Below are positions 4,990 through 15,877 of a stretch of 32,000 bases of DNA, in pieces. The notes under the pieces are model-generated. The model was not told where the DNA came from. It made no database searches and saw only the letters and a program-made list of their open reading frames with translations. The translations under genes and the position numbers were made by a program. Every line of letters starts with the position of its first letter. Positions within the stretch are counted from its first letter, which is position 1. This stretch comes from Candidatus Saccharimonadota bacterium (lineage in GTDB: Bacteria; Patescibacteriota; Saccharimonadia; Saccharimonadales; Saccharimonadaceae): NCBI GenBank assembly GCA_023898645.1, contig CP060232.1, positions 330,001-362,000 on the forward strand. Reading direction: 5' to 3'.

Positions 4990-5302
4990 GGTTTCAGCAC
5001 ATTTATTCCTTCAATACCTAACGTACCAATGATACGAATGACAGCGTATCGGGTATATGCGAGAGTAATTGTAAGGTGTAAATGAGCCTACCGACAAATG
5101 TCGTACGGGTGCGTCAACAAACTTTCAAATAATATTAATTAATATGAAATTGGTCGACACGCGCCCCTTTCCCACCGTCCAATTGCGAGATGGCGAGAAG
5201 AAAGACAGAGTAAGGTAGAGCCCTTGTAGTAATACAGGCGGCAGGAGAACGATAATTCGTAATCAATCAGTTACGGATGGCGAGATATCGTCAGTCGCCC
5301 GC
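4990..5302 (+). promoter_or_regulatory. Long 5' leader of the LysM-CHAP hydrolase gene; possible cis-regulatory RNA
   Basis: About 310 nt lie between the best promoter and the ATG at 5303, with no credible ORF. It contains the hairpin GATACG..CGTATC (5031-5050), the 14-nt AT palindrome ATATTAATTAATAT (5132-5145), and a duplicated GATGGCGAGA (5189-5198 and 5276-5285). Confidence 0.35.
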
Positions 5303-6403
5303 ATGAAGAGTAAGATTCTTCCTAGTGGAAAGCGTCGAAAGACAAGCAGACCTAAATTAAGTGTATTTGCAGCCTATGGCGGCGTTTTTGTGCTTATCAT
5401 TACCGTAGTCACTATTGGCTACCAGTCTCCACAGCCGTCTGCAGCTGGTGCTACCGTTGCGAACGCGGCGGTCCAGGTACAGTCACCGGTCGCTACTCCT
5501 GAATCAGGCACGCCATCGGTCGACCAGTTAGTTGCCACTAATGTCGCTGCTGGCCTTGCCGAACAGACAAATATGCCTGTTTCTGCCTATGTCGCCAACA
5601 TGTCACAGTCTCTTGCTGCCAAGGATGAGCTCGCCCAGACGAGCGACAGCGCCATTGTAAAGCCACAGATAGTCCAGCCAACGGTTGGTAGCCGTGGTAT
5701 AACCACTTACGTCGTCAAACAGGGCGACAGTCTATTGTCGATTGCTTCTAATTTCGGTTTAACGACTCAAACGATTCGCTGGGCTAACAACATGACAAGC
5801 GATTCCGTGGCTGTAGGCAAGAAACTCGTTATTCCACCTGTGAACGGAGTCATTTATAGCGTGCGATCTGGCGATACGATTGCAGGCGTTGCTGCGACTT
5901 ATAGCGCGAACAAAAATCGAGTTGTTTCATATAATAACCTGGAGCTTGGTGGTTTGAAGCCTGGTATTAAAATCGTAATTCCAGACGGAACTCTCCCTGT
6001 TGAACTACGTCCTGGCTATGTGGCGCCTGTGAGCGCGCCAGTGCTAGCACCCTCGACCTTCTATTCGGGTGGTAACGGCTACGCGTTTGGTAACTGTACT
6101 TGGTATGCGTATGCGCGACGTACACAACTTGGACTTCCTGTCGGCAGTAACTGGGGTAATGCCAATACTTGGGATGATTACGCTAGAGCGGCAGGCTTCT
6201 TGGTCAACTCTCGGCCGACTAAGGGTGCGATTCTTGTCGATAACAGTGGCTGGTATGGTCACGTTGCCGTTGTCGAAAGTGTTGCGGCGAACGGTAACAT
6301 TGTCGTCAGTGAGATGAACAACTACGCTTACGGCGGGTTCAATATCGTGGATCGCAGGACTATCACAGCCGGTCAGGCAGCAGCTTACATCTATATTCAC
6401 TAG
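5303..6403 (+). CDS. Secreted or anchored peptidoglycan hydrolase with two LysM domains and a C-terminal CHAP domain
   Basis: 366 aa with an N-terminal basic region and TM/signal segment (LSVFAAYGGVFVLIITVVTIG). There are two LysM repeats (YVVKQGDSLLSIASNFGLTTQTIRWANN...; YSVRSGDTIAGVAATYSANKNRVVSYNN...). The CHAP signature is FGNCTWYAYARR...GHVAVVESV...SEMN. Confidence 0.85.
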   Translation: MKSKILPSGKRRKTSRPKLSVFAAYGGVFVLIITVVTIGYQSPQPSAAGATVANAAVQVQSPVATPESGTPSVDQLVATNVAAGLAEQTNMPVSAYVANMSQSLAAKDELAQTSDSAIVKPQIVQPTVGSRGITTYVVKQGDSLLSIASNFGLTTQTIRWANNMTSDSVAVGKKLVIPPVNGVIYSVRSGDTIAGVAATYSANKNRVVSYNNLELGGLKPGIKIVIPDGTLPVELRPGYVAPVSAPVLAPSTFYSGGNGYAFGNCTWYAYARRTQLGLPVGSNWGNANTWDDYARAAGFLVNSRPTKGAILVDNSGWYGHVAVVESVAANGNIVVSEMNNYAYGGFNIVDRRTITAGQAAAYIYIH

Positions 6404-6446: not shown

Positions 6447-7781
<1,335 letters not shown>

Positions 7782-7789
7782 AATAAAAC

Positions 7790-8114
7790 TGATATGTGGG
7801 GTATTTAAACCGGTACCATATTCAGTGGCTGTTGGTTCGTTGCATGAAATGTGACGGATGAAAATCGTTGACTAACAGCCTATAAACTTCCCGGAGGTTG
7901 TCGACCGCTGAGCTAATCGCGAGAATCGACGATCATGAGGGAGAACCCCCGCAGGGTTACGAGAAAACAGTTGCTACGAGGGTAGACGAGTAGGTAAGGA
8001 AACTTACCGATAAGGAATACTCGTCTGCTCACACTGCTTTCCGTACCCTGCGGGGCAAACTACTTCTCAAGCTCAATGCTTGAAATGGGCGACCAAATGG
8101 TCGCCCTTATTTTA
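7790..8114 (+). ncRNA. Candidate structured ncRNA of about 320 nt, class unassigned
   Basis: No plausible ORF. A long-range helix pairs 7946-7961 with 8042-8055 (about 15 bp with one bulge). It encloses helix 7985-7992/8018-8025 and a GGTAAG-GAAA-CTTACC GNRA hairpin (7993-8008). A separate helix pairs 7827-7833 with 7874-7880. The unit ends in an intrinsic terminator. Confidence 0.45.
8087..8114 (+). terminator. Rho-independent terminator
   Basis: GGGCGACC-AAAT-GGTCGCCC stem-loop (8087-8106) followed by TTATTTTA. Confidence 0.7.
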
Positions 8115-8126
8115 TAGCAAAATATA

Positions 8127-8155
8127 TTGACAAAGTAATACTATAGTGATATAGT
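8127..8155 (+). promoter_or_regulatory. Near-consensus sigma70 promoter (TTGACA-17 nt-TATAGT)
   Basis: TTGACA at 8127-8132, a 17-nt spacer, and TATAGT at 8150-8155. It lies immediately after the previous terminator. Confidence 0.6.
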
Positions 8156-8161
8156 AATAAT

Positions 8162-8811
8162 GAAAATCAGTTGAGATATGTAATAGATCCTGATTGGAAC
8201 ATTGAAAAACTGAACATGTTTTACTCGTATCGAGGATCGCTTTTTGTGCATAGTTCGTGCACAGTAAGCGACCCTCGAAAGTGAGTGGGTTGCATGAAGA
8301 TGGAAAACCCTCGAAAGGAGCAGGATGCTTCGATTGATCGTTTACGATAGTAGTTGCTCTACGTAGCAACCTGACTGGTTGATCGGAACTTCCTCGTAGT
8401 GAAGTTTCGTCGTAATAATAGGGTTTTGGCGGTTGGAAAGCATTTCCGCGCCATTGGTGTAGACCCCCTGGCTGACTTCTGAGCCTCTAGAACCGGTACT
8501 AAGATTTCCGGGGATACGTTCGAAGCAGTATTGCAAAATGCAACCATTCACGGAGTACAACTTCATACAGTACAACTTAATATAGTTGGGGGCTGCGGTA
8601 CGGTATTGCCTTGCCGCCCCCCATAAACTTCTGCCTCGGCCAGCCTAGGGCTCGCCTTGAGGACGCAGCAAGAGGATGTGCTATGCCAGTTGAAGGAGCG
8701 CCCATTTCGTATGGTGTAGAAGTCGGATTACCGACGGAATCTCCTTTCTCGCGTAGTGCATATGTATGTTCAGCTTTTTTACCCCGCCCTCGTGGCGGGG
8801 TTTTCGCTTTC
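8162..8811 (+). ncRNA. Candidate large structured ncRNA of about 650 nt, class unassigned
   Basis: Bounded by its own promoter and a strong terminator. Only short, non-ATG, low-quality ORFs occur on either strand. Many helices are visible: 8231-8242/8266-8277 enclosing 8246-8250/8258-8262; 8353-8358/8365-8370; a GC-rich helix 8588-8598/8614-8622; and 8722-8735. Direct repeats are ACCCTCGAAAG (8271 and 8307) and AGTACAACTT (8554 and 8569). Confidence 0.5.
8782..8811 (+). terminator. Rho-independent terminator
   Basis: CCCCGCC-CTCGT-GGCGGGG stem-loop (8782-8800) followed by TTTTCGCTTTC. Confidence 0.75.
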
Positions 8812-8838
8812 TCGAACTAATCCGTTATTATAGGAGGA

Positions 8839-10275
8839 ATGGCGACGACTTTTTTCTTTTATGACCTAGAGACGAGCGGGCTGTCTGGCCGCGATGACCG
8901 CATTATGCAGTTCGCCGGCCAGCGGACAGACATGAATCTCAAACCGATCGGTGAGCCTGTTAACGTGCTCGTAGCGCTGAATGACGACACGCTCCCAAGT
9001 CCTGATGCCTTGATGGTTACTGGTATTACGCCGCAACAGACGGTTGCTGACGGCTACACGGAAGCGCAGTTCGCAGACATTATCCTCAAAGAGATATTTA
9101 CCGAGGGAACGATTGCTGTTGGCTACAATAATATTCGTTTTGATGATGAATTTGTTCGTCATTTATTGTGGCGAAATTTTCGTGATCCGTACGAATGGAG
9201 CTGGCGAGAAGGTCGTTCTCGTTGGGATTTACTCGACGTCGTGCGTATGACGCGAGCTTTACGTCCAGACGGAATAAAATGGCCGGTTGTTGATGGCAAG
9301 CCAACGAATCGCTTAGAGCTTGTCACAAAGGAGAATGGCATCGACCACTTTAAGGCGCATGATGCCTTAAGCGATGTCGAGGCATTGATTGCCGTTACGC
9401 AGCTAATCAAGGAAAAACAGCCGCAACTATATGATTATTTACTCAAAATGCGCGACAAGAAAGAGGTAAAAAAGCTCGTCAATTTAGACGACAAGCAACC
9501 GTTTGTATATACGAGTGGCCGCTTCGACGTCGAGTTCCACAAAACGACAGTAGCATTTCCGCTTACTGCCGGAAAGAATGGAAATGTGGTCACGTATGAT
9601 CTTCGTTACGATCCAGAGCCGTTTATAAATCTTGACAGCAAGGAGTTGGCAAAGAAATTGTATGCATCGTGGGAAGAACGCAAGACAGAAGGTTTCGTGC
9701 CGTTACCCGTCAAGGAGATGCAATATAATCGAGCACCGTCGGTGGCGCCTCTTGGGGTACTAGAACAGGGCGATGGTTGGGCTCGAGTTGGGTTAGACAA
9801 AGAGACTATAGAAAGACATCGTAATGCGCTATTAGCAGCACCGCATTTTGCTGAAAACATACGTACTTTGTTTGAAAATAAACCTGAATATAAAAAATCA
9901 TCAGAACCTGAGGCGCAGTTATACGATGGCTTTTTAAGTGATGCAGATCGTCTTCGTACTCAGGCGGTTGCCGTGGCGGACGAAAAAACACTCGCCGATA
10001 TGCATCCTGAATTTCAAGATGAACGCTTGGTTCCACTCTTGTTGCATTACAAGGCACGAAGCTTTCCTCGTAGTTTGAGTGTGGATGAATCTGTAGCTTG
10101 GGAGCAATGGAGGGTGCAGCGCATACAATCGCAGCTGCCTTCATTTGTTAAATCTATAGAGCGACTAAGCAAGCAGGGACTAACAAATCAACAGCAGTTC
10201 GTGTTGCAGGAAATACAGCTATGGCTAGCAAATGTCGCTCCGAGTGATTCAGGAGACGAAACAGAATCTAACTAG
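8839..10275 (+). CDS. sbcB: Exodeoxyribonuclease I (DEDDh 3'-5' ssDNA exonuclease)
   Basis: 478 aa. The N-terminus FFFYDLETSGLSGRDDRIMQFAGQRTD matches ExoI Exo-I motif. It also has GYNNIRFDDEF and HDALSDV (Exo-II and Exo-III). Length and C-terminal domains are typical of SbcB. Confidence 0.9.
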   Translation: MATTFFFYDLETSGLSGRDDRIMQFAGQRTDMNLKPIGEPVNVLVALNDDTLPSPDALMVTGITPQQTVADGYTEAQFADIILKEIFTEGTIAVGYNNIRFDDEFVRHLLWRNFRDPYEWSWREGRSRWDLLDVVRMTRALRPDGIKWPVVDGKPTNRLELVTKENGIDHFKAHDALSDVEALIAVTQLIKEKQPQLYDYLLKMRDKKEVKKLVNLDDKQPFVYTSGRFDVEFHKTTVAFPLTAGKNGNVVTYDLRYDPEPFINLDSKELAKKLYASWEERKTEGFVPLPVKEMQYNRAPSVAPLGVLEQGDGWARVGLDKETIERHRNALLAAPHFAENIRTLFENKPEYKKSSEPEAQLYDGFLSDADRLRTQAVAVADEKTLADMHPEFQDERLVPLLLHYKARSFPRSLSVDESVAWEQWRVQRIQSQLPSFVKSIERLSKQGLTNQQQFVLQEIQLWLANVAPSDSGDETESN

Positions 10276-10562
10276 GTTCGATTGGTGGTTCGTTTCACCA
10301 GCCAGTCACGTTTGGTAATAAGACCGATGATGTAGTCGCGCCTTTGGCGGATAATCGTAATTCTGCGTGCGAGCAACTCGAATAGTACGGCGGATGTTGC
10401 TACCGACATGATGGCAATCATCATGCTAGGTGACAGCGCCGTGCGTGTCAGGGGGATTTCTCCTGCTAGCAAAAAATTCAGTAGCATGTCTTGCACGCGC
10501 AACGTATCTAGTACGAGCCAGACAAAGACTAGAAGAGCGGTTGTGTTGATTATCCTGTGCAT
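10272..10562 (-). CDS. Small membrane protein of about 2 TM helices, unknown function
   Basis: 96 aa with two hydrophobic helices (TALLVFVWLVLDTL and SMMIAIMSVATSAVLFELLA). It has a good Shine-Dalgarno, AGGTGAGG, 5 nt upstream of the ATG at 10562. Confidence 0.55.
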   Translation of the reverse strand: MHRIINTTALLVFVWLVLDTLRVQDMLLNFLLAGEIPLTRTALSPSMMIAIMSVATSAVLFELLARRITIIRQRRDYIIGLITKRDWLVKRTTNRT

Positions 10563-11022: not shown

Positions 11023-13185
11023 TTATAGAATTGGCCTGCTGTCAGGGGAGTCGCCTGTGTCGTTCTGAGTTGGCGCCTGAGTTGGTGTTGGAGTCGGAAC
11101 GGGGGTTGGGTTAGCAATAGGTTCAGTAGGTTCAGTAGGTTCAGTAGGTTCGACGGTAGGTGGGGTTGTAGGCTGAGTGCAAGGTACTTTCTTTTCAACG
11201 GTGGTGGTAGTGCTACAGTTTGAGAGGACGCCACAGACGTTAATAACGCTCGTAACTGTACTATTGCTACAGTTTGACAGAGTGCCGCAGAGGCTTATGA
11301 AACCACTGTTGGTGCTACCGCTACAGTTTGATCCTACGCCACAGACTACGAATGCGCCATTGTTGGTGCTACCGCTACAGTTTGATCCTACGCCACATTT
11401 TACAATGCCTGCGTCATTAGTGCTGTTGTTGCAGTTTGATCCTACGCCACAACTAACGACTGCGGCTTTGTTCGTGCTACCGCTACAGTTTGATCCGACT
11501 CCGCAGCTGACGACGCCTCCCTTGTTGGTGCTGTTGCTACAGTTTGAGCCTACGCCGCAAGTCACGACACCACCTTTATTAGTGCTACCGCTACAATTGG
11601 CTGCTACTCCACAGTCGACGAAAAGGCCGGCATTTGTGCTGTTGCTACAGTTGGCGCCAAGTGTACAGGTGTTCACAACACCGGTATTTGTACTGTTGCT
11701 GCAATTACCAGCTACACAGCCGTTTAGGATGGCGGTATTTGTACTGCCGCTGCTATTACCGCCTACATTGCTGTTTACTGCACCTACATTCTTGCTGCCG
11801 CTACTGTTGTTGCCAATGTTGCTGTTTACCGCTCCTACGTTTGTACTGCCGCTGCTATTACCGCCAATGTTGCTGTTTACCGCTCCTACGTTTGTACTGC
11901 CGCTAGTATTGGATCCGGCGTTACCGTTTACTACGCCAACATTCGTACTACCGCTACAGTTGGAGCCCAGACAGACGTTTGCTAGAGCGACATTTGTCTG
12001 ATCGCTACAGTTTGCACCGTTTGCGCAAATGTTTAGCCATCCAACGTTAGTTTGGTTGCTACAATCTTGTCCGGCTAGGCAGGTGTTGACGCCCACCACG
12101 CCCAGAGCTCCCTGGGCTACCTGAGTAACTCCAGCTGCTGCAGTGGTTAAGCCGCTTTGTACGGCGGCAGAATTACCTGTTACCGCACCGACTACAGCTG
12201 TGCCTAATCCGGAGATACTATTAGCAATACCTTTACCAATCTTTAAAAGGTTAGAGAAGAAGCCGACGAGTTTTACGTCAGATGATCCTGACGCAAGCGC
12301 AACATTGATGTCTGGTGCTCCTGAGGCGACAGCTACGCTCACATTGGCAGAAGCTGAAGTGGCTGAAACTGTGTCGCCACTTGCTGTTGAAGCGACTGTC
12401 GAAGATTTGCTGAGTGCGTTCTTAAGTATGGCTATCTGAGATTTCGACATTGCCGATATAGCAGCTAGGTTTTGCTTAAGATGATCTAAGTCGTACTGGA
12501 TGCTTTTTAACGAAACGAAGCCAGCGGAACCGAGGTTGATGTGTGTGGCGCCGTTTGATTTGGCGGCTTTCATTGTTTGCTGAAGTGTGTCAATCGTGCT
12601 CGCGAGTTTTTTGCTGAATTTAACCTGATGTTGTTGATCAGCAAGTAGCTGAGCTAATTCATTGGCAGGTTTGTATTGTTTAAATTCGAGGTCAATATAA
12701 TATACGACGGCGTTTATTTGCGCAGGGTCTGAACCGGCGTCATCGAGTGCGTTCTTGAGGGCGGTAAGTGACTGTTTTGTTTGGCTCAGAGCTGAATCTA
12801 TCTTGTTTTTGACAGTTGTAGCGTCTGACGAGACATTCTTAATGATCTTTTGATCAGCCTCAATAAAAGCAAGCCTTCGGTTGATTTCGGCGGTTGCCTT
12901 GGCTTTCAAAGAGGTGGGGCTAGCTGATTTATCAGATGCTAACACCACTTGTTGCTCATCGACAGCTTGAAAGGAGCTTCGATGTAATTGGAAGTTTACG
13001 ATATTGGCATCGTTTGCGTCCTTTAAGCTTTGTTTAATGGCTACCGGAGAGACCATTTTGAGTTTTGCAACGCCAGGTTTGGGTACCAGGTATGTCCATG
13101 AAACATAGGCTACACCCACCACTAACAGTAATCCGACAATGATACTGACAAGTACTAATGGGCTTTTGAGTTTGGCTGGAAGCAT
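11023..13185 (-). CDS. Membrane-anchored Cys-ladder solenoid-repeat protein (paralog 1), unknown family
   Basis: 720 aa. It has an N-terminal signal anchor (LVLVSIIVGLLLVVGVAYV) and a helical region at aa 90-260 that is paralogous to the neighbouring gene (AKSNGATHINLGSAGFVSLKSIQ). A Gly/Ala/Val-rich segment follows, then 17 tandem 17/18-aa coils (aa 369-669) and a Pro/Thr-rich tail. Confidence 0.85.
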   Translation of the reverse strand: MLPAKLKSPLVLVSIIVGLLLVVGVAYVSWTYLVPKPGVAKLKMVSPVAIKQSLKDANDANIVNFQLHRSSFQAVDEQQVVLASDKSASPTSLKAKATAEINRRLAFIEADQKIIKNVSSDATTVKNKIDSALSQTKQSLTALKNALDDAGSDPAQINAVVYYIDLEFKQYKPANELAQLLADQQHQVKFSKKLASTIDTLQQTMKAAKSNGATHINLGSAGFVSLKSIQYDLDHLKQNLAAISAMSKSQIAILKNALSKSSTVASTASGDTVSATSASANVSVAVASGAPDINVALASGSSDVKLVGFFSNLLKIGKGIANSISGLGTAVVGAVTGNSAAVQSGLTTAAAGVTQVAQGALGVVGVNTCLAGQDCSNQTNVGWLNICANGANCSDQTNVALANVCLGSNCSGSTNVGVVNGNAGSNTSGSTNVGAVNSNIGGNSSGSTNVGAVNSNIGNNSSGSKNVGAVNSNVGGNSSGSTNTAILNGCVAGNCSNSTNTGVVNTCTLGANCSNSTNAGLFVDCGVAANCSGSTNKGGVVTCGVGSNCSNSTNKGGVVSCGVGSNCSGSTNKAAVVSCGVGSNCNNSTNDAGIVKCGVGSNCSGSTNNGAFVVCGVGSNCSGSTNSGFISLCGTLSNCSNSTVTSVINVCGVLSNCSTTTTVEKKVPCTQPTTPPTVEPTEPTEPTEPIANPTPVPTPTPTQAPTQNDTGDSPDSRPIL
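11121..11154 (-). repeat. 9-bp in-frame tandem repeat encoding (TEP)n in the Pro/Thr tail
   Basis: GTTCAGTAG occurs 3 times in perfect tandem (11121-11147), followed by a degenerate copy. It translates on the minus strand as PTEPTEPTEP. Confidence 0.9.
11179..12081 (-). repeat. Coding tandem-repeat array: 17 units of 51/54 bp (17/18 aa)
   Basis: The coils follow C-x4/5-C-S-x-S-T-N-x-G-x-x-x-x. The 42-nt perfect copy GCCAATGTTGCTGTTTACCGCTCCTACGTTTGTACTGCCGCT occurs at 11812-11853 and again at 11863-11904, a 51-bp offset. Confidence 0.9.
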
Positions 13186-13231: not shown

Positions 13232-15877
13232 TTAATTCATCTCGTGCCGTACGCTAAAGGAAGAAGAAGCAGTGGTAAAGCTTGCAAGCAACGGCAACGT
13301 ATTACGGCTGTCAGGAACGTAGGCTACTGAAGTGTCCACTAGGCACTGATTGACGACGACAGTTTTGATTGTAGTACTACAATTGGACAACAGGCCGCAG
13401 CTATATATAGGGTTATTAGTCGTAGTGTTACTACAGTTTGATCCCAGTCCGCAGAGGCTTAAGAAGCTATTGGTAGTCTCACCGGTGCAGTTCGAGGCAA
13501 CACCGCAAATCGAGAGTGCGCCATTGTTCGTCTTGCCGGAGCAGTTAGAGGCAAGACCGCAAACCATAACACCCTCGTTATTTGTAGAATTTGAGCAGTC
13601 TGATAGTGTGCCACAGAGACTCGCAACACCACTATTGATAGCATTTGAGCAGTTAGACAACGTACCACACCTTTGAACTAGGCCGTTATTGATAGCATTT
13701 GAGCAGTTAGACAACGTACCACACTTTTGGTAGACGCCGTTGTTCGAAATATTGTAGCAGTCGGACAGTACGCCACACTTTAGTATGAAGCCGTTGTTTG
13801 TGCTGTCGGTGCAGTTTGAACCTATGCCACATTTTTGCACGATACCGTTGTTGACTGCATTCGTACAGTTAGACAGTAGTCCACATACCTGTACTTTGCC
13901 ATTATTAATCGCGTCAGTGCAGTTAGACAGCGTACCGCATCTCTGGTAAACCCCGTTGTTTGTGATGTTAGAGCAGTCAGACAGGGTGCCACACCTCATC
14001 ACAACGCCGCTATTCATGGCATTCGTACAGTTAGACAACGTGCCGCATGTCTGTACAACACCGCTATTAATTGCATTTGAGCAGTTCGATAGCGTGCCAC
14101 ATGCTTGGTAGACGCCGTTGTTCGTAATGTTCGTACAGTTAGACAGCGTTCCGCACCTTAGTATGAAGCCGTTATTTGAACCGTCCGTGCAGTTAGAGCC
14201 GACACCACATTTCTGTATGAGGCCATTGTTGACTGCATTCGTACAATTAGACAACGTACCGCATACCTGCACGACACCGTTGTTAATCGCATTGGCACAG
14301 TTAGACAGCGTACCGCATCTCTGGTAAACCCCGTTGTTTGTGATGTTAGAGCAGTCAGATAATGTTCCGCATCTTAATAACACACCGTTATTCGTATCGT
14401 CAGTACAGCTTGATCCGATGCCGCATGTCTGTACGCCACCATTGTTTGTATTTCCGCTACAAATCGATGCCACGCCGCAGTTTACAAATACACCATTGTT
14501 AGTATTATTAGCGCATTCAGACAAAAGACCGCACGATAATGTACCGCCGTTGTTAATGGCATTAGAACACTTAGATAATGCGCCGCATACTTGTATGAGG
14601 CCTTTGTTGATATCGTCAGAACATTTAGACAATGTGCCGCATGATTGGTAGACACCGTTGTTCGTAATATTAGAGCAGCTAGACAATGATCCGCATTTCA
14701 ATATAAATCCATTATTTGTATTGTCCTTGCAGGTTGACAGTGTTCCGCACTTCAGTATGACACCATAATTTATAGCATCGGTACAATGAGATGCTGATCC
14801 GCATAATTCTACTATGCCTTTGTTGACAGCATTAGAGCAGTTAGACAACGTGCCGCACTTTTGGTAAGCGCCGTTATTTGTGATATTCGAGCAGTTAGAC
14901 AAACTGCCGCATCTTAGAACAAATCCGTCGTTCGTGTTATTTTTACAGTTCGATCCTAGGCCGCACGTCTCTGAGACGCCGCTATTTGAGTTGTCTGTAC
15001 AATTAGCTCCTATGCCACAAGCTGTTATATAGCCATAATTTGTATTACCGTTGCAGTTTGATCCCAGTCCGCAGATGCTGACCCCGTATCTGTTTCCTGT
15101 CACCAGGTTGCTCAATTGACTAAGGCCAAGTCCTGTATTTGTGAGAGTGTTTTGAGCAACGGATAGTTGATTGAAAACAAGTGCCGCCTGGTCGGTTGAT
15201 GGGTTGGTCAGCTCGTCCCTAATCAATATAGATAATGAAGACGATATGCTTTGTTCAACGGTTGTGCTTGTTTCGAGTCCTTGCCTCAGCGCGTTTAATT
15301 GAGTCTGAATGGTCTGAAGTGGGACAAAGCCTGCGACACCTCCGTTGACGTGAGTCGCTCCATTCGCCTTTGCTGCGTCAATGGATTTTTGAACTGAAGC
15401 TGCAGAATCCTTTAGCTTAGTAATAAGCTGATTCTGTAAGTGCAAATCATTAAGTAACGTAGACGACTGATTGACTGCTGCGTATTTATTAAAATTAGAA
15501 TCAACCTTTGAAGCTATGTCCTTGAGTACTTTTGTATTACTGGCATCAGTGTTGTCTACTTTGCTTAGCAGATCGGTCAGATCTTTTTTGACTGAATTTA
15601 GGTCAGACTTTAGTTTCTCTAGAGTGGCATTTGGAACGTCGTGTTCGGAATCAACGAGTTTTAAATCGGCGTTAATGGTGTTTAGCCGACGTCCTATTTC
15701 CGTAGTGATTGAAACTGACAAATTTACGTCAACGGCTGTCGACGGAGCGACGGCCAGAGCGGGTACTACGCTTTGACCTGCTATGACGACTGCAGAAAAC
15801 AAGGCGAATGCCGATTGAATAAACTTGCGATTAATGTGAAGGATTGATTGTTGCATAGTCATTACCTTATTTATCAT
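13232..15877 (-). CDS. Secreted Cys-ladder solenoid-repeat protein (paralog 2), unknown family
   Basis: 881 aa with a Sec-type signal peptide (FIQSAFALFSAVVIAGQSVVPALA|VAPS) and a helical region paralogous to paralog 1 (AKANGATHVNGGVAGFVPLQTIQ). Exactly 32 uninterrupted 18-aa coils span aa 269-845. The true start may be Met8 (ATG at 15856), which has AAGG 8 nt upstream. Confidence 0.85.
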   Translation of the reverse strand: MINKVMTMQQSILHINRKFIQSAFALFSAVVIAGQSVVPALAVAPSTAVDVNLSVSITTEIGRRLNTINADLKLVDSEHDVPNATLEKLKSDLNSVKKDLTDLLSKVDNTDASNTKVLKDIASKVDSNFNKYAAVNQSSTLLNDLHLQNQLITKLKDSAASVQKSIDAAKANGATHVNGGVAGFVPLQTIQTQLNALRQGLETSTTVEQSISSSLSILIRDELTNPSTDQAALVFNQLSVAQNTLTNTGLGLSQLSNLVTGNRYGVSICGLGSNCNGNTNYGYITACGIGANCTDNSNSGVSETCGLGSNCKNNTNDGFVLRCGSLSNCSNITNNGAYQKCGTLSNCSNAVNKGIVELCGSASHCTDAINYGVILKCGTLSTCKDNTNNGFILKCGSLSSCSNITNNGVYQSCGTLSKCSDDINKGLIQVCGALSKCSNAINNGGTLSCGLLSECANNTNNGVFVNCGVASICSGNTNNGGVQTCGIGSSCTDDTNNGVLLRCGTLSDCSNITNNGVYQRCGTLSNCANAINNGVVQVCGTLSNCTNAVNNGLIQKCGVGSNCTDGSNNGFILRCGTLSNCTNITNNGVYQACGTLSNCSNAINSGVVQTCGTLSNCTNAMNSGVVMRCGTLSDCSNITNNGVYQRCGTLSNCTDAINNGKVQVCGLLSNCTNAVNNGIVQKCGIGSNCTDSTNNGFILKCGVLSDCYNISNNGVYQKCGTLSNCSNAINNGLVQRCGTLSNCSNAINSGVASLCGTLSDCSNSTNNEGVMVCGLASNCSGKTNNGALSICGVASNCTGETTNSFLSLCGLGSNCSNTTTNNPIYSCGLLSNCSTTIKTVVVNQCLVDTSVAYVPDSRNTLPLLASFTTASSSFSVRHEMN
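13343..15073 (-). repeat. Coding tandem-repeat array: 32 units of 54 bp (18 aa), no indels
   Basis: Consensus coil is CGTLSNCSNAINNGVVQx. A 37-nt perfect copy occurs at 13634-13670 and 13688-13724, a 54-bp offset. A 62-nt perfect copy occurs at 13920-13981 and 14298-14359, a 378-bp offset equal to 7 coils. Confidence 0.95.

Follow-up and report, generated by a model that had tools for sequence, protein, structure and literature searches.

In the ribosomal RNA (rrn) operons of Escherichia coli, the transcribed leader carries a boxB-like hairpin, the boxA element that is the site for NusB and NusE, and a boxC segment whose pairing with the spacer creates the RNase III processing stem of pre-16S rRNA (PMC6614801). 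boxA elements also act outside rRNA, as in the 5' untranslated region (UTR) of suhB (PMC5725501). Here, we consider a 32,000-nt stretch of a Candidatus Saccharimonadota genome (contig CP060232.1), called the window below, in which a unit at 8127-8811, inside the 1069-nt gap between obg and sbcB (7770-8838), shares with rrn leaders, such as those of E. coli and Mycobacterium tuberculosis, the order of a strong promoter, a hairpin, and a conserved linear motif (core C-N-U-U-R-A-C-A); the segment after the motif again pairs 3' of a long, structured, mostly untranslated RNA. Unlike in rrn operons, the cargo of the cassette is not rRNA but a hypervariable body of 300-600 nt with Shine-Dalgarno (SD) sequences and micro-open reading frames (micro-ORFs), and there is one terminator per cassette. 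Because the order of elements matches that of E. coli rrn operons, we favor an rRNA-style expression cassette. We propose, with moderate confidence, that the unit at 8127-8811 is a self-contained gene whose product is a stable structured RNA of about 650 nt (about 560 nt when processed), and that it belongs to a Saccharibacteria-specific family of obg-sbcB cassettes with an rrn-style leader/stem mechanism. Each component is of a known kind (nut-like leader, processing stem, large structured RNA, leader-peptide-like ORFs); the novelty lies in how they are combined, in the fixed locus, and in the hypervariable cargo.

For comparison, the 80 closest species-level loci were retrieved with the Obg protein of the window and labeled L001 onward. 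Almost all of them come from Saccharibacteria/Patescibacteria metagenome-assembled genomes (MAGs), and a few records carry generic or other labels. The order obg-sbcB is retained in about 75 of the 80 species, with an intergenic distance of 2 nt to 5 kb. A single-sequence nhmmer search with the unit matched only L001 in this set, and profile searches with the unit body found nothing beyond L001 among the 80 loci. Further homologues were obtained from contigs encoding the closest SbcB proteins (L106, L117, L118, L119, L120, and L122/L123). Among these, L106 has an SbcB that is 87% identical and carries the unit directly after obg, with 77% unit identity to the window. An earlier reading of the window, made from the sequence alone and called here the sequence-only reading, had described the unit as a promoter-to-terminator, non-coding, large structured RNA, perhaps new or lineage-specific, and had suggested looking for it in related genomes. 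That search yields homologues in five other lineages (L106, L122, L117, L120, and L001), which together with the window are the six lineages compared below.

Both boundaries proposed in that reading are sound. The near-consensus promoter TTGACA-17-TATAGT is recovered by a consensus scan, and the strong intrinsic terminator has the expected stem and U-tract (Table 1). In every homologue, the unit likewise has a TTGACA-17-TAnnnT promoter and a terminator to itself. The promoter is at the equivalent place in L106, L122, L117, L120, L001, and about 40 other loci, and equivalent terminators are present in L001, L106, and L122 and, by direct reading, in L117 and L120. Transcription probably begins near 8162.

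Table 1. Coordinates of the unit, its parts, and selected neighboring features in the window, with the micro-ORF orthologues of the other five lineages.
Feature	Position (strand)	Description
obg	6471-7769	Upstream flank of the 1069-nt gap
Unit A	7753-8115 (+)	Tandem relative; own promoter TTGACA-17-TAGTAT overlapping the obg stop codon; terminator 8087-8106
Sigma-70-type promoter	8127-8155 (+)	TTGACA (8127-8132), 17-nt spacer, TG-extended -10 TATAGT (8150-8155); 11/12 consensus matches
5' leader hairpin	8165-8195 (+)	Lower stem AUCAG/CUGAU, GUUGAG element on 5' side; boxB position of rrn leaders
Conserved leader motif	8196-8212 (+)	GGAACAUUGAAAAACUG; family consensus GnACnUURACAAG, boxA-like
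5' arm of terminal stem	8205-8217 (+)	Overlaps 3' half of leader motif; inverted repeat of 13 nt, 92% complementary
Long hairpin H1	8230-8278 (+)	21 pairs, 95% paired, 9 with double changes; best-supported helix
Micro-ORF	8325-8366 (+)	SD GAAAGGAG at 8313-8320, ATG at 8325, 13 codons MLRLIVYDSSCST, stop TAG at 8364-8366
Micro-ORF orthologue, L106		MVRLIFYEDYPS
Micro-ORF orthologue, L117		MLRLIVYECRSS
Micro-ORF orthologue, L120		MLRLIIYECRSS
Micro-ORF orthologue, L122		MSRITLYEVSRLAY
Micro-ORF orthologue, L001		MPHLLYECRSLHY; GTG start, in-frame 3-nt deletion
Hairpin with conserved loop	8384-8409 (+)	Loop CCUCGUAGUG; helix 6, 11 pairs, 5 with double changes
Most conserved core	8420-8539 (+)	Multi-helix junction AGGG..GGCG..(hairpin)..CGCCAYUGGUGUAGACCCCCU (8420-8469), then helices; helices 7-10
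GC-rich bulged helix	8588-8622 (+)	Helices 11-13, covarying; 97% identical to L106
3' domain	8640-8765 (+)	Only in the window, L106, and L122
3' arm of terminal stem	8766-8780 (+)	AUGUUCAGCUUUUUU
Intrinsic terminator	8781-8811 (+)	Stem ACCCCGCC/GGCGGGGU at 8781-8801, 8 pairs (7 G-C), then interrupted U-tract UUUUCGCUUUC
sbcB start	8832-8841 (+)	SD AGGAGG (8832-8837) and ATG
sbcB (exonuclease I)	8839-10275	Pfam RNase_T, ExoI_SH3, ExoI_C; downstream flank of the 1069-nt gap
tRNA-Leu(GAG)	31918-32002 (-)	Truncated by the window end

The predicted transcript opens with the leader hairpin, which begins 10 nt past the -10 element. Folded sequence by sequence, a hairpin of 30-40 nt forms in all 30 of the family leaders, with arm sequences that differ between loci and often with GUUGAG on the 5' side. 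The stem AUCAG/CUGAU of the window becomes GUCAG/CUGAC in L106 and is also counted as helix 1 of the six-lineage alignment. No consensus structure emerged from MAFFT and RNAalifold on 28 leaders, whose hairpin arms vary too much for alignment by sequence.

The hairpin is followed by the boxA-like motif. In about 1.2 Mb of loci and in the window itself, a weight matrix built from 24 leaders of the very obg-sbcB gaps that it was then used to score reaches 19 bits or higher only in such gaps and on the + strand alone; the motif of the window scores 20.1 bits at 8196. Weaker matches outside the gaps all fall in coding sequence. When metagenomes were scanned for the leader pattern ACATTGANAANNTGAACATGTT, the 20 matches obtained were all unrelated (coding sequence of other bacteria). 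The gamma-proteobacterial consensus of boxA is GYUCUUUAANA, in which G2, C5, and U/C6 are critical, and the E. coli sequence is UGCUCUUUAACA (PMC5725501, PMC3177189). Compared with this reference, the motif agrees at G2, C5, U7, U8, A10, and A12, and position 4 is A rather than U. No rRNA operon was found in the window or in the related loci scanned with Rfam. Among non-ribosomal RNAs, boxA protects the transcripts of CRISPR arrays. The cassette resembles these and suhB in having a boxA-like element near the promoter of a largely untranslated transcript, but the unit has no repeats or spacers, and the cassette motif doubles as an arm of a long-range stem.

That stem is formed by an inverted repeat (8205-8217/8766-8778) that encloses the whole RNA, is found in the minimum free energy fold as well, and had escaped the sequence-only reading. 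Direct reading shows that the window subfamily keeps it through compensatory changes: the pairing is CUGAACAU/AUGUUCAG in the window, CGAA/UUCG plus AAAGCUGA/UCAGCUUU in L122, and UUUGUUGA/UCGACAAA in L117, and the equivalent stem of L106 also pairs through different sequence. Throughout the family, the 3' half of the motif and the next 10-15 nt pair with a segment just 5' of the terminator; for 17 of 25 units, the distance from the best partner to the sbcB start is 53-186 nt. Twenty loci have stems of 12-19 bp that differ in sequence, with z values of -1.5 to -7.9 against shuffled arms and a partner that is usually 80-140 nt before sbcB; loci with differing stem sequences include L016, L022, L010, L027/L071, L035, L046, L053, L055, and L072. 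G-U pairs in the terminal stems number 14 when read on the + strand and 6 when read on the - strand, which weakly favors the + strand.

The body enclosed by this stem is highly structured. Its folding energy is -236 kcal/mol (z = -5.5 versus shuffles), and covariation among relatives, which the sequence-only reading had named as the check on a structured RNA, exceeds both kinds of control. The RNAalifold structure of five sequences has 92 pairs, with 90.9% of cells paired and 28 pairs with double changes, compared with 14.4 +/- 2.4 in column shuffles (0/500 reach 28) and 3-12 when registers were slid by 1-3 columns. For the six lineages, the corresponding values are 83 pairs, 88.7% paired, and 25 double-change pairs, versus 11.2 +/- 2.5 shuffled and 4-11 slid. 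The nested hairpin seen earlier corresponds to H1, and the GC-rich bulged helix that had been noted is conserved as well as covarying. Of two smaller hairpins in the same reading, the one at 8722-8735 is present and kept in L106 and L122, whereas the one at 8353-8370 forms in the window but is not conserved in L106. The helices named in that reading also appear in the minimum free energy fold. The two short direct repeats are also present at the spacings given, ACCCTCGAAAG at 8271 and 8307 (36 nt) and a 15-mer containing AGTACAAC at 8547 and 8562 (15 nt). In addition, TGGTGTAGA occurs twice in the unit (8455-8463 and 8712-8720).

Conservation is uneven along the body. The core is 87-100% identical to L106, compared with 77% for the whole unit, and the 3' strand of its junction is retained in the window, L106, L117, and L120, with variant forms in L122 and L001. 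Within the 3' domain, CCAU/AUGG is replaced by CCGU/ACGG in L106, a compensatory change, and an SD-like GAAGGAG (8692-8698) pairs with the anti-SD-like CUCCUUUC (8741-8748), which we take to equal the 3' end of 16S rRNA. This anti-SD-like segment could alternatively pair at long range with the SD of the micro-ORF. L117 and L120 lack the 3' domain, and both terminate shortly after the GC-rich helix; the RNA is therefore modular.

These observations bear on whether the unit acts as RNA at all. It could be a DNA-level relic without RNA function, that is, a decaying cargo gene or a mobile cassette in an insertion hotspot, with the repeats as recombination sites. The wide range of gap lengths, the pilins, lipoproteins, and surface proteins found in the gap elsewhere, the patchy presence of the unit, and the inverted repeats that flank its body would all suit such a relic. 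However, compensatory changes preserve helices throughout the body, the G-U pairs favor the sense strand, and promoter, leader, SD and ORF, and terminator are all retained in six lineages. Moreover, the repeat arms differ in every species, unlike recombinase sites, neither the 32-kb window nor the remainder of the 13-kb loci contains a second copy, and the unit has no similarity to protein cargo in any frame. We consider a relic highly improbable.

Coding potential in the unit is confined to short frames. No long conserved ORF is present on either strand: translated matches are spread over all six frames and change frame from homologue to homologue, and indels of 1, 2, 4, 5, and 13 nt are scattered along the unit. 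The sequence-only reading had dismissed the listed ORFs, and none of the longer frames is conserved. The - strand frames (85, 77, and 62 aa) were rejected on that ground, and a 45/69-aa + strand frame (ATG at 8683, running through the terminator) was rejected because L122 lacks its ATG and L106 has a frameshifting deletion of 2 nt within it. The same reading had gone on to conclude that the unit holds no credible ORF at all, which proved incorrect, as a conserved 13-codon ORF with SD and ATG and coding-type substitutions lies at 8325-8366. Orthologues of 12-14 codons are present in all six lineages, with synonymous changes such as CGA/CGG, TAC/TAT, and ATC/ATT. By direct reading of codons 2-8, third positions vary in six of seven codons, and first and second positions in three of seven each. 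As far as substitutions can indicate translation, the pattern is that of a translated micro-ORF. A small hairpin, GGAGCA/UGCUUC, can sequester both the SD and the AUG.

The finding of a conserved micro-ORF raises the possibility that its 13-residue peptide is the product, in which case the unit would be a small mRNA with structured UTRs and a terminal stem that serve only stability. Coding-type conservation, the in-frame indel, and the strong SD are what one would expect of such an mRNA, and the same cassette carries protein genes in two other loci (L007 and L022). We nonetheless regard this explanation as very unlikely. The most conserved parts of the unit are 8420-8539 and 8588-8622, not the ORF, in which conservation is limited to the first 8 codons; about 500 nt of covarying structure would be left unexplained, and the 13 codons account for only a small part of the 650-nt conserved structure. 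The micro-ORFs of other subfamilies have 4-11 codons and unrelated sequence, and no modifying or export genes are nearby. A related comparison is with hok, a type I toxin mRNA (about 400 nt), which the unit resembles in its compactness, its paired 5' and 3' ends, and its internal small ORF with a sequestered SD. Unlike hok, however, the unit has no hydrophobic toxin ORF of about 20-50 residues, its 13 residues not being membrane-like. A consensus scan for a - strand promoter in the unit, as for an antisense RNA, found none, and between the unit and the remainder of the window, complementarity is limited to chance-level 10-12-mers.

Micro-ORFs are a feature of the family as a whole. The + strands of 34 gaps contain 49 SD and ATG/GTG sites, compared with 9 on the - strands and 12 +/- 3.3 in shuffles, an approximately four-fold excess. 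The median length is 11 codons, and the stops tend to adjoin stable hairpins (p = 0.013). A +X+ motif is known from macrolide-sensing and other arrest peptides (PMC8298421, PMC12583479). Peptides with R/K-x-R/K or Pro-stop, which resemble arrest peptides of the macrolide-sensing and termination-stalling kinds (PMC8298421), are often encoded in related loci (L038, L064, L069, L014, L027, L071, L033, L063, and L044): MRLRP (twice), MRLRDPPI, MLKLKPR, MKRRP, MSRSPP/MNRSPP, MRRHL, MRRHC, and MKKRHM. In contrast, the window peptide (MLRLIVYD...) has neither a +X+ motif nor Pro-stop. The L025 micro-peptide, MRLMLYEC..., resembles the window type.

A conserved tiny ORF with a strong SD ahead of a terminator and a gene is also what defines the likeness to leader-peptide attenuators such as trpL/hisL, TnaC, and ErmDL/ErmBL. 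The unit could thus be a long cis-acting leader of sbcB, a multi-upstream-ORF attenuator in which a ribosome on the micro-ORF would remodel the RNA and set passage past the terminator. Several observations are consistent with this idea. sbcB has an SD, and a consensus scan found no promoter between the unit terminator and the sbcB start; the 3' arm and terminator abut sbcB in most loci; and because the U-tract is interrupted, the terminator may be leaky. The proximity of stops to stable hairpins and the arrest-peptide-like micro-ORFs of relatives (e.g. MRLRP, MRLRDPPI, MLKLKPR, and MNRSPP) point the same way. On the other hand, the unit is 3-4 times longer than leader-peptide attenuators, is closed by a terminal stem, and often has no plausible regulated gene downstream. 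Its 500-650 nt, at least 10 helices, and whole-body closing stem far exceed known attenuators. Inspection of the folds revealed no terminator/antiterminator alternative, and none overlapping the micro-ORF, the stop of which is about 415 nt before the terminator. Furthermore, sbcB is not always the next gene: the L001 unit precedes pilin genes, and the tandem first units of the window, L007, L009, and L117 precede another cassette. In about one-third of species, obg and sbcB are 2-75 nt apart and there is no unit, and there is no known reason for exonuclease I to require such control. We think an sbcB attenuator rather unlikely.

How sbcB itself is expressed can be considered separately. Because no promoter follows the terminator and the U-tract is interrupted, expression of sbcB probably occurs by read-through of one or two terminators. 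We take this read-through to be a consequence of the arrangement and not its purpose, given that some cassettes do not have sbcB directly downstream. L117 has a TG-extended -10 (TGGTATCAT) immediately ahead of a GTG start, which hints at a leaderless or nearly leaderless alternative.

A further question is whether the unit is a known RNA in divergent form. At the gathering threshold, Rfam 15 reports no family in the unit for the whole window, and at E <= 10 only chance-level, terminator-like matches appear within 7700-8900. The best Rfam match within 8156-8780 scores 23 bits, to microRNA models that have gathering scores of 95-97. In 11 related loci, Rfam finds no family in the gap, only lysM-TM7 and a tRNA, and ARAGORN finds no transfer-messenger RNA (tmRNA). 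The sequence-only reading had seen no motifs of RNase P RNA, tmRNA, or signal recognition particle (SRP) RNA, had likened the size to that of OLE, ROOL, GOLLD, and HEARO, and had proposed an Rfam search as the check; by Rfam or ARAGORN, the unit is none of these. The case for a very divergent member of one of these classes, or of 6S RNA, is that the size range fits, that the closing stem together with the internal short ORF loosely recalls tmRNA, and that the closing stem recalls 6S RNA. Yet beyond the negative searches, the ORF has its own SD and AUG, unlike the tmRNA tag frame, and the body lacks the phylum-wide conservation of housekeeping RNAs. Such an assignment is almost certainly wrong. 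Likeness to OLE, ROOL, GOLLD, and HEARO is of a more general kind. The unit shares with them a size in the 500-800-nt range, many conserved helices, a stand-alone gene, and a narrow lineage range, but it differs in having no Rfam match and in carrying a conserved, translated-looking micro-ORF. In addition, the cores of those RNAs are conserved over their whole range, whereas the cassettes share only leader, terminal stem, and locus. A full-text literature search found no description of an RNA of this kind from Saccharibacteria or the candidate phyla radiation (CPR).

The cassette family is present at the obg-sbcB locus in more than 30 of the 80 related species, and nearly every Saccharibacteria locus with a gap of at least 450 nt opens, right after obg, with a similar strong promoter. 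What these Saccharibacteria cassettes have in common is a leader of about 60 nt, the terminal stem, and the locus, and nothing else. Motif searches for a body core shared across subfamilies recovered only an SD-like GAAAGG. Of the lineage-specific, large structured RNA proposed originally, the autonomous unit and the conserved, covarying structure stand; the unit is not purely non-coding, however, and the family is not a single slowly evolving class.

We can outline how such a cassette might work. A strong sigma-70 promoter, to judge from its match to consensus, would fire and produce a transcript whose first 50 nt are a hairpin and GnACnUURACAAG in boxB-boxA position. This leader may recruit an elongation/antitermination factor of the NusB/NusE kind, so that polymerase could cross the long, mostly untranslated, hairpin-rich template. 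The segment that overlaps and follows the motif pairs 5' of the terminator, as its covariation shows, and closes the body in a stem of 13-20 bp; by analogy with the boxC/spacer duplex flanking 16S rRNA, this closing stem is probably an RNase III-type processing or stabilizing stem. The body folds into at least 10 conserved helices. Because it has a strong ribosome-binding site and a conserved micro-ORF of 13 codons, which is presumably translated, the mature RNA probably engages ribosomes, whether as a regulatory nascent-peptide sensor, for self-stabilization, or to produce the micro-peptide. Read-through past the interrupted U-tract would then feed sbcB as a side effect.

Several observations weigh against this proposal. 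The boxA likeness is imperfect, since positions 4 and 6 deviate. Of 24 leaders, 13 have A at position 6, and transversions at this position abolish NusB/E binding in E. coli and lambda (PMC3177189). Nor is the motif fully single-stranded, because its first bases (GG/GGU) fall inside the hairpin stem. By energy, the reverse strand of the unit is as stable as the forward strand (z = -6.9), and the strand therefore cannot be assigned from this measure by itself. The lineages behind the covariation number only five to six, and the same alignments served to predict the structures. Between subfamilies, the bodies (300-600 nt) cannot be aligned and share no detectable sequence; structured RNAs whose molecular function is conserved seldom diverge to this extent. 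In a minority of loci, moreover, leader and stem of this type surround a protein gene, in L007 one for a secreted protein of 113 aa and in L022 one for a lipoprotein of 241 aa. What the cassette provides may thus be a means of expression in general, and its presence may not mark a single class of RNA. Finally, transcript, ends, processing, translation, and factor binding are all inferred.

Saccharibacteria and other CPR genomes are tiny, with very little non-coding DNA and few known regulators, and apart from the housekeeping RNAs, almost nothing is known of the RNAs that they make. A large proportion of the species commit a strong promoter, a leader of rRNA style, and a closing stem to a structured RNA of 300-650 nt. 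An investment of this kind across species implies an abundant RNA with a real cost and hence a function. If the leader is truly of Nus type, then rRNA-style antitermination and processing would extend to non-ribosomal cargo in a deep-branching phylum, and the cassette would offer a ready-made module for strong expression and stabilization in Saccharibacteria genetics. The micro-ORFs, some of which match antibiotic-sensing arrest motifs in related species, link the RNA to the ribosome in a testable way. One can go further and imagine that Saccharibacteria keep, at one fixed site of the chromosome, a rapidly diversifying family of abundant RNAs that are processed like rRNA and load ribosomes on arrest-type micro-ORFs, as a new class of sensors or decoys that tune translation or sense host-derived compounds, such as macrolide-like antibiotics or amino acids of the Actinobacteria host, with the hypervariable body reflecting an arms race or host specificity. 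This wider scenario is quite unlikely.

The rest of the gap is filled by a second cassette, unit A, which the sequence-only reading did not report and which is separate from 8127-8811. It has a variant leader hairpin (ACUGAUAUG.../...CCAUAUUCAGU), the motif GGUUCGUUGCAUGAAAUG, and a highly structured body in which CCCCGCAGGG (7948) pairs with CCCUGCGGGG (8047). No micro-ORF with SD and ATG was found in unit A. Its 5' 170 nt are almost identical in L117 (5213-5545), and it is absent from L106, L122, and L001.

In other species, the obg-sbcB gap (L001-L123) is a hypervariable hotspot for inserted genes. Type IV pilin-like (N_methyl) clusters occur in it in L001, L013, L019, L020, and L110, and other cargo includes small secreted proteins (L003/L004 and L007), a surface protein resembling leucine-rich repeat proteins (L026), and a beta-lactamase-like protein (L067). 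The locus is therefore of interest as a hotspot for pilins and surface proteins too, which are central to the epibiotic lifestyle.

The genes around the gap are housekeeping genes (FtsA/PilM-like, RuvX, YceG, LysM-CHAP, UvrA, L25, KsgA, and UvrC). Upstream of the LysM-CHAP gene (5303-6403), the window contains a lysM-TM7 RNA (5086-5247; RF03005 in Rfam, 92 bits), an arrangement that recurs in all 11 of the related loci scanned. The NCBI label of the exonuclease I (P0001), "MAG: Candidatus Nomurabacteria bacterium," is probably a taxonomic mislabel, because the lysM-TM7 RNA and nearly all of the 80 closest loci indicate Saccharibacteria. Two long - strand ORFs, 11023-13185 (720 aa) and 13232-15877 (881 aa), have no Pfam match, and the same holds for a 96-aa ORF convergent to sbcB (10272-10562, - strand). 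The latter has a counterpart of 85-98 aa at the same position in related loci with gene calls.

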